A DNA stretch of 62,562 nt from a virus, in UHGV virus genome UHGV-0106067, one strand, 5' to 3'. Positions 15,502 through 16,243 of this stretch are shown here, piece after piece. A program made the position numbers and the translations under genes. Under the pieces are notes generated by a model, which saw only the letters and a program-made list of their open reading frames with translations, searched no databases and was not told the DNA's origin. The stretch's first letter is position 1; each line of letters begins with the position of its first letter.

Positions 15502-15530
15502 TTGACCCCAATAACCACCAACGGTATTTA
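15502..15530 (+). promoter_or_regulatory. PL-like early-left promoter with flanking operator-like sites
   Basis: -35 TTGACC, 17-nt spacer, -10 TATTTA. Sites AATAACCACCAACGGTATT and AATCACCGCAAGTTATATT share cores with OR. Confidence 0.6.
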
Positions 15531-15634
15531 CACAAAAATCACCGCAAGTTATATTTATTTCAAGCCAGAAACATCGCGCCCTTACACAGGGCTACATAAA
15601 TCAGTCGTACGGCGCGACTTAACCCGCCGCAAAA

Positions 15635-15647
15635 TGCTCTTTAACAA
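15635..15647 (+). promoter_or_regulatory. boxA antitermination element (rrn/P22-type consensus)
   Basis: Exact TGCTCTTTAACAA about 100 nt downstream of the PL start. A boxB-like hairpin GCCCT-tacac-AGGGC at 15578-15592 lies upstream of it. Confidence 0.6.
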
Positions 15648-16056
15648 TCTGGAGCTTTACAGCGTCAATGACCTGTTTAGACCCCTACACGTAAACGTGC
15701 TGTATCATCGGGTGCGATCCGGTCGATGAGAGAGTATCCCCGCGCGAGAGCGAGAACGGCGTGAGAACGGGCAACACTGGCAGGAAGTTGGCGCTGACCA
15801 ATACAGGGAATGTTTTGGGGTGTGGTGAAGGGTTCATGGACGGGAATATGTCGCACGTAAAGCGGCGAGGCCCGAGGGACTATTGCTGAAGATAAGTAGG
15901 CCGAATCGGGTCGAAATGGGTCTCCCACCTGCCACATCGCCAAAGCATTTCCGAGAAAGGACGGTATTGACTGCGTGTGATGTCGGGGCTATATTTGGCG
16001 AACACCTCATAAAACGGGTGTCGGGATTCTCACCCCGCTGACAATCGAGGCGATAC

Positions 16057-16079
16057 AGACGCGCCAGCGTCTTTTTTTG
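16057..16079 (+). terminator. Intrinsic terminator inside the PL leader, upstream of the first early-left gene
   Basis: GACGC-gcca-GCGTC followed by T7. Confidence 0.8.
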
Positions 16080-16243
16080 TATCGACATACACGCACATCT
16101 TATCAATGGTGGGCTGTATGGGGCCGACTTCGGTCGGGCTGGTTCCCTTGATTGCCAGTTGTGAGAACCCTGTACAGTCCACCGCCAGCGAGCTTCTCAC
16201 CTCCTGCGGTGGTTATTAATCACCAATCAAGGAGGCTGCCATT

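Follow-up and report, generated by a model that had tools for sequence, protein, structure and literature searches.

How does a lambdoid phage without an N gene carry transcription through its early left operon? The question is raised by positions 15502-16243 of the virus genome UHGV-0106067, of which the whole stretch of 62,562 nucleotides (nt), hereafter called the window, was analysed. By its sequence, the window is a complete phage of the genus Oslovirus (TL-2011c/PA2/VT2phi_272 type, with the “Eru1” replication type), and the region matches phages of this type at 96-99%. It lies in a 986-nt gap between hicA and rha with no credible gene inside. An original prediction, made from the letters alone, had described it as one GC-rich, structured leader of about 0.7 kb that might act as a put-like antitermination RNA or as an independent noncoding RNA (ncRNA) of about 540 nt. 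All of the motifs listed there are present, at or within a few bases of where they had been placed, and the region is indeed the untranslated start of the leftward early promoter (PL) operon, where both a consensus boxA and an intrinsic terminator are found. Yet it is neither one leader nor one ncRNA: its 3′ third consists of two known RNA genes, IsrK and C4, and its middle is the hairpin of an N-gene leader. From its alignments, the leader appears to be a mosaic that arose by recombination, placed at the start of the PL operon in a phage without N. We regard it as probable that this mosaic joins a phi80-type nutL site and the N-leader hairpin to an IsrK-C4-rha cassette, which stands in place of N within the PL operon.

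The boxA has the exact rrn-type consensus, UGCUCUUUAACAA (TGCTCTTTAACAA). It had been recognised as an exact rrn/P22-type boxA, and it is the sole exact copy in the window; by our own arithmetic, the chance expectation of an exact 13-mer in 2 x 62.5 kb is ~0.002. This boxA lies ~73 nt from the predicted transcription start and is followed by ~600 nt of untranslated RNA. Downstream of it, the RNA forms a 133-nt domain, the consensus of which contains six helices (two of them long-range and closing the domain) and highly conserved unpaired stretches. All six helices covary. In a set of 22 sequences, 98.2% of the cells are paired, and double (compensatory) changes are found in 13 of the 33 pairs, a number reached by none of 500 shuffles. 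In 80 distinct sequences, 97.5% of the cells are paired, as compared to 85.5% after shuffling, and 23 of the 33 pairs contain compensatory changes, as compared to 14.7 +/- 1.2 (again 0 of 500 shuffles). When the partners were slid against each other, just 32-43% of the cells in the two sets were paired. The second scan of viral contigs used a different bait, and the hairpin that had served as the first bait also covaries. Moreover, the frequent G-U pairs fit the + strand only. Covariation across homologous phages, which the original prediction had named as a check on the leader, is thus strong in the boxA-linked domain (80 distinct sequences). Our covariance model of the domain, R1, matches the window with 202 bits, in a single copy. 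An Rfam search over 15200-16400 at E <= 10 returned nothing that covers the boxA domain; its matches to bxd_1, SAM-Chlorobi, and rne5 are due to chance, and the IsrK and C4 matches are the only real ones. The new part is the boxA-linked domain, a large covarying fold and not a simple boxB hairpin, for which Rfam has no family.

What is the origin of this element? Positions 15635-15951 are 95.3% identical over 317 nt to phage phi80 (M11919.1, NC_021190), in a segment that begins at the annotated “nutL boxA”, includes the “nutL core”, and stops 36 nt short of the N start codon. In the GenBank entry M11919.1, a 278-nt “nutL regulatory signal” (661-938) encloses the covariance-model match. The identity thus runs over boxA, domain, boxC, and N-leader hairpin, in the same slot after cI and PL. 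The two phages differ in the 5′ 70 nt of the transcript, in boxA, which is a perfect consensus in the window (TGCTCTTTA) and TGCTTTTTA in phi80, and in the absence from the window of N (98 amino acids, aa) and tL1, in place of which IsrK-C4-rha is found. The boxA-proximal part is a genuine conserved structured RNA, homologous to the annotated antitermination site phi80 nutL. The nut region was recognised in phi80 in the 1980s, according to M11919.1; a literature search of limited coverage found no description of the fold. The order of boxA, structured element, boxC, long hairpin, and first gene is the same in lambda, with which the hairpin arms and fold are shared. In contrast, the structured element is a 133-nt six-helix domain in the window and a 15-nt boxB hairpin in lambda, and the window has neither N nor nutR. 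Consistently, no second boxA, boxB-like core, or R1 match was found elsewhere in the window. The boxB-like hairpin of the domain is P4 (CACG-UAAA-CGUG, with an A-rich loop), yet it lies 40 nt from boxA, within the domain. The original prediction had instead taken an upstream hairpin, GCCCT-TACAC-AGGGC, as the boxB equivalent and inferred an inverted nut order. That hairpin is present, but the inversion was a misreading: boxA comes first and the “nutL core” (CACG-TAAA-CGTG, 15688-15699) after it, which is the normal order. From these comparisons, it is plausible that the boxA and the domain act in cis and recruit Nus factors for antitermination.

Does the domain travel together with N? The two pattern scans of viral contigs gave more than 190 domain loci, which is a lower bound, and the covariance model detected exactly one full-length copy in each of the 94 sources searched. 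A boxA core (GCUCUUUAACAA-like) is present in all 80 distinct members of the family, and the boxA-linked domain is always preceded by the gene of a CI-type repressor in the same orientation. The phages concerned infect Escherichia, Enterobacter, Kluyvera, Klebsiella, Salmonella, Edwardsiella, Erwinia, Providencia, and Proteus, and also include Hamiltonella APSE. Among the matches listed, phi80 N occurs in only 7 of the 201 domain-bearing loci, a 933W-like fragment in 1, and lambda N in none, and the first downstream open reading frames (ORFs) belong to 49 unrelated families. For example, the first ORFs phi80 N, HK225_041, and Edno5 gp50 are mutually unrelated in pairwise comparison. As the first genes behind the module fall into 49 unrelated families, and as so few of the loci contain phi80 N, the occurrence of the module without N is the rule and not an accident. 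The domain is also present in 224 of 5426 complete E. coli genomes (including O104:H4 2009EL-2050 and DH5alpha), where the RefSeq annotation shows nothing; phi80 N is encoded in 77 of the 5426, which equals the number of phi80-type domains, and the 147 genomes with an Oslovirus-type domain are additional.

We then compared 14 distinct N-less Oslovirus leaders. None of the 13 boxA positions and none of 131 domain positions (15668-15798, most of the domain) is polymorphic, while the non-coding parts adjoining the domain show 5-17% polymorphism and a 105-nt deletion. This invariance, the consensus boxA, and the mostly N-less loci together favour a retained function of the domain, as far as sequence conservation can indicate one.

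Several further observations were made on the carriers of the domain. Low-GC versions (43% GC) exist in Providencia and Proteus phages, and with Hamiltonella APSE they place the domain beyond the E. coli lambdoids. The cloning strains DH5alpha, DH10B, TOP10, XL10-Gold, and EPI300 contain a phi80 remnant with both the phi80 nutL domain and the phi80 N gene. In one domain-bearing IMG/VR contig (L112), a transfer RNA (tRNA)-like sequence with a GGTTCGATTCC T-arm motif directly follows the boxC sequence GGGGTGTGGT. In a pattern scan of a genome collection, 22 of the 31 matches (in high-GC Actinobacteria and others) were rejected by the covariance model as chance matches.

Beyond the domain, the window retains the leader of an N gene that it does not possess. 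Positions 15814-15945 are ~92% identical to the segment just 5′ of N in 933W, HK97, and mEp234. This segment folds into a long hairpin (z = -4.3), as does the lambda N leader (z = -4.2), and in the alignment the arms CTTTGGGGTGTG and CCACAyCrCCAAAG are common to lambda, 933W, phi80, and the window. The lambda N-leader stem contains boxC and an RNase III site that modulates N translation. In the TL-2011c and Lyz12581 types, 105 nt of the hairpin interior (~15838-15942) are deleted, and a mini-hairpin with the conserved arms is left. The homology to phi80 ends at CCAAAGCATTTC, where the IsrK cassette begins. Since this end falls directly in front of the ribosome-binding site of phi80 N, the slot of N is taken by the IsrK-C4-rha cassette.

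The absence of N itself, as claimed in the original prediction, agrees with our searches: a tblastn search of the window with the N proteins of lambda, 933W, HK97, and phi80 gave a best E value of 0.48, inside cI. A scan for Arg-rich motifs in all ORFs of 50-200 aa found none in the early region, and matched only out-of-frame ORFs of the late region. The leader had been said to contain only ORFs of up to 41 codons, none of them Arg-rich. The latter part holds, while longer ORFs, of 42 and 52 codons, appear on the + strand if TTG and GTG are allowed as starts. The 42-codon ORF (15761-15889) has no PHROG match; the 52-codon ORF was outside that scan. Both are cut by the 105-nt deletion in relatives and run through covarying RNA helices.

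What stands in the place of N? Both RNA genes match their Rfam models over the full length: IsrK (RF01394, 1-77) with 61 bits against a gathering score of 50, and C4 (RF01695, 1-87) with 77.1 bits against 45. Three elements of the original prediction are explained by them. The “strong terminator” is present and belongs to IsrK; the UUCG-capped hairpin is the first internal stem-loop of C4; and the CCACCGC/GCGGTGG pairing before rha exists, with CCACCGC being the 3′ strand of the C4 closing stem. The terminator, the hairpin, and this part of the pairing are therefore components of IsrK and C4, and not of an antitermination device. As calculated with RNAduplex, the antisense segments a′ and b′ of C4 pair with the rha leader at 16223-42 (-16.7 kcal/mol) and 16193-207 (-10.2 kcal/mol), and pair better with IsrK (-19.7 and -19.2 kcal/mol). 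Moreover, in the 21 loci with a readable sequence at each of the three sites, a variable triplet is mutually complementary in IsrK, C4, and the rha leader. Three specificity types exist (CTC/GAG/CTC, AGG/CCT/AGG, and GCT/AGC/GCT), and b2 is always the reverse complement of b′. In the c4 logic of P1 and P7, the a and b target sites are repeated, and the P1 and P7 specificities differ by a few co-varying bases. The three IsrK/C4/target types suggest a similar hetero-specificity among co-resident Shiga toxin (Stx) prophages. The first translated gene of the operon, rha, encodes a protein whose C-terminal half matches the PHROG antirepressor families 995 and 1760, and cassettes of a related kind stand ahead of antirepressor genes in phiP27, other Stx phages, and N15. 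In relatives of the F039/Lyz12581 type, the ORF over C4 is fused in frame to rha (261 aa), whereas in the window it stops 25 nt before rha.

The closest described counterpart is the isrK-orf45-anrP region of Gifsy-1 (Hershko-Shalev et al. 2016, PMC4825925). It likewise has an IsrK promoter of its own, a terminator, a C4-like region that pairs with the middle of IsrK, and a Rha/antirepressor-like gene. In Gifsy-1, some IsrK transcripts pass the terminator and form a translationally silent messenger RNA (mRNA), which is opened in trans by the short IsrK, and the ~80-nt STnc1160 is processed from the orf45 region (PMC4825925). Consistently, the read-through transcript of the window folds (z = -5.6) such that C4 pairs with the central part of IsrK, which matches structure A of PMC4825925. 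The two systems differ in two respects. The cassette of the window lies inside the PL operon, right behind a nut site, and thus comes under CI-controlled transcription too; and its orf45 equivalent ends before rha, while orf45 of Gifsy-1 overlaps the start codon. With the P1/P7 immI region (c4-icd-ant) and the N15 CA RNA, the cassette shares the two antisense segments directed against repeated sites, of which the downstream site covers the next ribosome-binding site. Unlike in those phages, the upstream target copy lies inside a separate small RNA (sRNA), IsrK, and the regulated gene is of the Rha family and not icd/ant.

From which promoter is the leader transcribed? The original prediction had pointed to TTGACC-17-TATTTA at 15502-15530 as a strong PL-like promoter. 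This sequence is present, but it is not strong: its -10 element matches in 3 of 6 positions and lacks the final T, and its -35 element is not conserved, reading TCGTCC or TCGCCC in the closest relatives (PA2- and TL-2011c-type). A consensus promoter scan missed it, and it is at best an upstream, non-conserved variant of PL. The conserved TTTACA-17-TATATT is most likely PL, with a predicted start at ~15562. CI-operator-like sites at ~15510-15528 and ~15537-15554 overlap it, operator-like ATAACC/ATCACC half-sites recur in the cI-cro intergenic region, and an immunity-specific mosaic joint lies at ~15561. The numbers of promoter-like and terminator-like matches in the region (7 versus 4.9 and 7 versus 3.5 in shuffled sequences, respectively) are, as counts alone, not above the shuffles. 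The two 5′-proximal hairpins (15578-15619) are kept in all four Oslovirus types and are absent from phi80 and HK225. The GC-richness attributed to the leader is only mild (52.3%, with 49.5% in the whole window), and it is equalled in 31% of the stretches of this size. The direct repeat GAGAACGG is present as noted before, with copies at 15752-59 and 15763-70.

On this basis, we propose the following course of events. Transcription from the CI-controlled PL would first copy boxA and the 133-nt domain, then the N-leader hairpin with its boxC, and then the IsrK cassette. The C4 RNA, processed from read-through transcripts, would block Rha translation by masking the rha ribosome-binding site, and IsrK would titrate C4 or open the structure, so that Rha is released; these steps are modelled on P1/P7 c4 and on Gifsy-1 IsrK. 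The IsrK terminator would be leaky by design, as in its homologues. Without N, the boxA and the domain would load NusB/S10 and other Nus factors, as the boxA elements of rrn operons and CRISPR arrays do. This loading would shield the ~680-nt untranslated PL transcript from Rho, and would favour the passage of PL-initiated transcripts, rather than those from the IsrK promoter, through the IsrK terminator. It has been reported that NusB binds the rrn boxA much more tightly than the (lambda) nut boxA (PMC2800207), and that untranslated CRISPR arrays are protected from Rho by boxA (PMC7665894). With the boxA systems of rrn operons and CRISPR arrays, the window has in common an exact rrn boxA early in a long untranslated transcript, the lack of an available phage protein, hairpins upstream, and a boxC-like GU-rich element downstream. 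In contrast, the 133-nt domain has no counterpart in rrn leaders. That the boxA and the domain work without N in these three respects (Nus loading, Rho protection, and selective passage of the IsrK terminator) has, in our estimate, somewhat less than an even chance. More tentatively still, and with the odds rather against it, the boxA and domain might represent a distinct class of processive antitermination RNA that is independent of phage proteins, is neither N/boxB nor put, and forms a Nus complex on the PL transcripts of hundreds of Enterobacterales prophages. In the N-less Osloviruses, the CI-controlled PL transcripts, and not those from the IsrK promoter, would then pass the IsrK terminator and escape Rho, which would couple induction to the antirepressor and recombination genes.

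Several observations weigh against a working N-independent element and the switch built around it. The polymorphism of the leaders climbs gradually toward rha, a highly mosaic gene, and that the domain varies so little may be due to a recent common ancestor or to its distance from this gene, and not to selection. The thermodynamic signal is weak (z = -1.4 for the domain alone and z = -1.6 for the whole leader), and single-sequence thermodynamics was therefore left out as evidence. The functional steps assigned to C4, IsrK, and nut are transferred from homologues, and the designation of Rha as an antirepressor derives from PHROG family names only. The boxA/Nus complexes are best documented against Rho-dependent and not intrinsic termination, so that any help of boxA at the IsrK terminator is speculative. 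N analogues might have gone unrecognised among the many small, unrelated first ORFs of other phages (60-100 aa, 140-220 nt downstream). Finally, since phi80 nutL precedes an annotated N, the module may be one that normally needs a phage protein and is an inert relic here.

This last point leads to the main rival explanation, in which the boxA-domain nutL and the N-leader hairpin are inert relics of the replacement of N, and the PL operon is expressed through a leaky IsrK terminator. The homology break exactly at the N ribosome-binding site, the position of the phi80 module before N and the tL1 terminators, and the loss of 105 nt from the adjoining hairpin in the TL-2011c and Lyz12581 types all fit a relic, as does the partial read-through of the IsrK terminator in the Gifsy-1 homologue, which has no nut site at all (PMC4825925). 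A relic does not readily explain why boxA and the scored domain positions are invariant in the 14 N-less leaders while the flanks vary and carry the deletion, why the boxA of the window is closer to the consensus than that of phi80, or why, among the matches listed, the module precedes so many unrelated first genes and so rarely phi80 N. We consider this explanation rather unlikely, though it deserves to be taken seriously. The trans-acting supply of N by a co-resident phi80-type prophage is conceivable in that the nutL is 95% identical to that of phi80 and E. coli strains that produce Shiga toxin (STEC) carry many lambdoid prophages. However, it becomes very unlikely because the count of E. 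coli genomes with phi80 N (77, most of them laboratory phi80 lysogens or derivatives of these) equals that of the phi80-type domains, and the 147 Oslovirus-type genomes come in addition. At the other extreme, the leader itself might hide a small translated N analogue or be a single ncRNA of ~540 nt, for which one could cite its + strand ORFs of 42, 52, and 37 codons and the extensive folding over the whole region. Against this stand the missing PHROG match of the 42-codon ORF and the lack of any Arg-rich ORF, the interruption of the 42- and 52-codon ORFs by the deletion and their overlap with covarying helices, the unexceptional fold of the whole leader, and the presence of an internal promoter and two separately modelled RNA genes; we give this idea hardly any weight.

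Could the domain instead act on its own? The put-like RNA suggested in the original prediction would, in its strict form, be an antiterminator that needs no partner and contacts RNA polymerase directly. The large conserved fold with its highly conserved unpaired stretches, its constant position just 3′ of PL and after a CI-type repressor gene, and the lack of a conserved partner protein among the matches listed are compatible with such an RNA. HK022 put is, like the present module, a cis-acting early PL RNA in a lambdoid phage without functional N. In contrast, put is ~70 nt long with two stem-loops and no boxA, and stands in both early operons, while the module of the window is larger, boxA-coupled, and single-copy. 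Neither blastn nor R1 revealed any similarity to HK022 put, and each phage has one copy and not a putL and putR pair, which speaks against the put-like proposal. The invariable coupling to boxA, moreover, points to Nus factors, which put does not need, and phi80 has an annotated N. A self-sufficient RNA of this kind is improbable in our view, and we think similarly little of a role unrelated to termination, in which the domain would be a processed early sRNA or sponge, an anti-defence RNA, or a protein decoy freed by RNase III cleavage at the N-leader hairpin. The domain would be transcribed first upon induction, the presumed RNase III site borders it, and it is widely spread over Enterobacterales phages, including APSE. 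But its invariable linkage to boxA and the nut position, together with the nutL annotation in phi80, favours transcription elongation, and there is no evidence of a stable processed species. The reading of the leader as a mosaic, with nutL and the N-leader hairpin placed before the IsrK-C4-rha cassette, is the one on which the coordinates below are arranged.

Features of the leader and its surroundings in the window, in order of position
Feature	Position	Strand	Basis or remark
cro	12022-12261	-	lambda-type
cI	12321-13034	+	lambda-like, helix-turn-helix + S24; upstream of PL, same strand
hicAB toxin-antitoxin pair	14662-15257	-	Pfam confirms both genes; between cI region and PL
PL (most likely), TTTACA-17-TATATT	15527-15555	+	scan 10/12; aligns with annotated phi80 pL -35/-10 and Lyz12581 TTGACT-17-TATATT
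Hairpin GCCCU-UACAC-AGGGC	15578-15592	+	
Hairpin AGUCG-UACGGCG-CGACU	15603-15619	+	
boxA	15635-15647	+	exact rrn-type consensus; aligns with phi80 “nutL boxA”
Multi-helix RNA domain, 133 nt	15662-15794	+	RNAalifold consensus and pair counts; position of boxB in lambda nut sites
P1	15662-67:15789-94	+	helix
P2	15673-77:15779-83	+	helix
P3	15683-85:15769-71	+	helix
P4 hairpin	15688-99	+	phi80 “nutL core”, A-rich loop
P5 hairpin	15705-29	+	
P6 hairpin	15737-64	+	
N-leader hairpin	15805-15955	+	homologous to lambda/933W/HK97/phi80 N-leader stem; presumed RNase III site
boxC-like GGGGUGUGGUG	15817-27	+	within N-leader hairpin
Recombination joint	15951-15966	.	phi80 homology ends just 5′ of phi80 N ribosome-binding site; IsrK cassette begins
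IsrK promoter TTGACT-17-TATATT	15967-15995	+	scan 10/12; kept in 4/4 Oslovirus types; ends 7 nt before Rfam IsrK start
IsrK sRNA with intrinsic terminator	16002-16079	+	RF01394; Rfam match 16002-16077; terminator 16057-16079
IsrK decoy sites for C4 (predicted)	b1 16022-41; a1 16037-58	+	
C4-type antisense RNA	16102-16189	+	RF01695; P1/P7 c4, N15 CA, Salmonella STnc1160 class
37-codon ORF over C4	16106-16219	+	Gifsy-1 orf45 equivalent; PHROG matches via fused annotations only
C4 antisense segments (predicted)	a′ 16140-55; b′ 16156-68	+	
rha-leader C4 targets (predicted)	b2 16193-16207; a2 16223-16242	+	a2 covers Shine-Dalgarno AAGGAGG 16229-35
rha, Rha-family regulator	16244-16891	+	Phage_pRha, PF09669 E = 1e-30; first translated gene of operon
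kil	16962-17174	+	PHROG scan
gam-like	17488-17769	+	PHROG scan
recT	17717-18736	+	
exo	18733-19431	+	

The + strand of the window corresponds to the leftward direction of lambda. After cI, in the slot of lambda rexAB, lies a ClpP/SDH-type serine-protease-like ORF of 303 aa (13463-14374, +), which may serve in exclusion or defence. A sigma-70 promoter that fits the consensus perfectly (TTGACA-17-TATAAT, 12/12; 15287-15315, -) points into hicA, divergent from PL. Just 5′ of PL, two terminator-like GC hairpins with T tracts (15359-15378 and 15412-15425, +) probably end the cI/immunity transcript. Further away, near the Q/late-promoter region, Rfam identifies STnc100 (149 bits; 2809-3025, -) and the sok antitoxin RNA (118 bits; 6786-6960, -). 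An N6 DNA methylase and a type I specificity-subunit-like gene (3212-6327, -) occupy the slot between Q (6991-7521) and a nanS-p-like esterase (628-2601), in which relatives carry stx. A tRNA scan of the window found none.

Most of the leader thus consists of known elements, and that N is missing had been reported before: the Eru1 phages possess a Cro like that of lambda but no N, CII, or CIII (Llarena et al. 2021, PMC8044961). Through the present analysis, an unannotated 1-kb gap becomes a defined array of PL, an orphan nutL, an RNase III-type hairpin, IsrK, C4, and an antirepressor-like Rha. The remaining interest lies both in the orphan boxA-linked domain, which is invariant in these leaders, and in the position of an IsrK/C4 anti-immunity switch right behind it in clinically important Stx phages. 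Among the Eru1/Oslovirus Stx2a phages are those of the 2011 O104:H4 and 2006 O103:H25 outbreaks, and unusually unstable lysogens have been reported for them (PMC8044961). The phi80-type “nutL” is a large, covarying, boxA-tied fold that is widespread and usually found without a recognisable N, and its carriers range from the phi80 derivatives in cloning strains to the Stx2a phages of these two outbreaks. If the domain works with host Nus factors alone, it would be a third solution to early antitermination in lambdoid phages, and, if so, would offer a natural system for the study of boxA complexes on mRNA.

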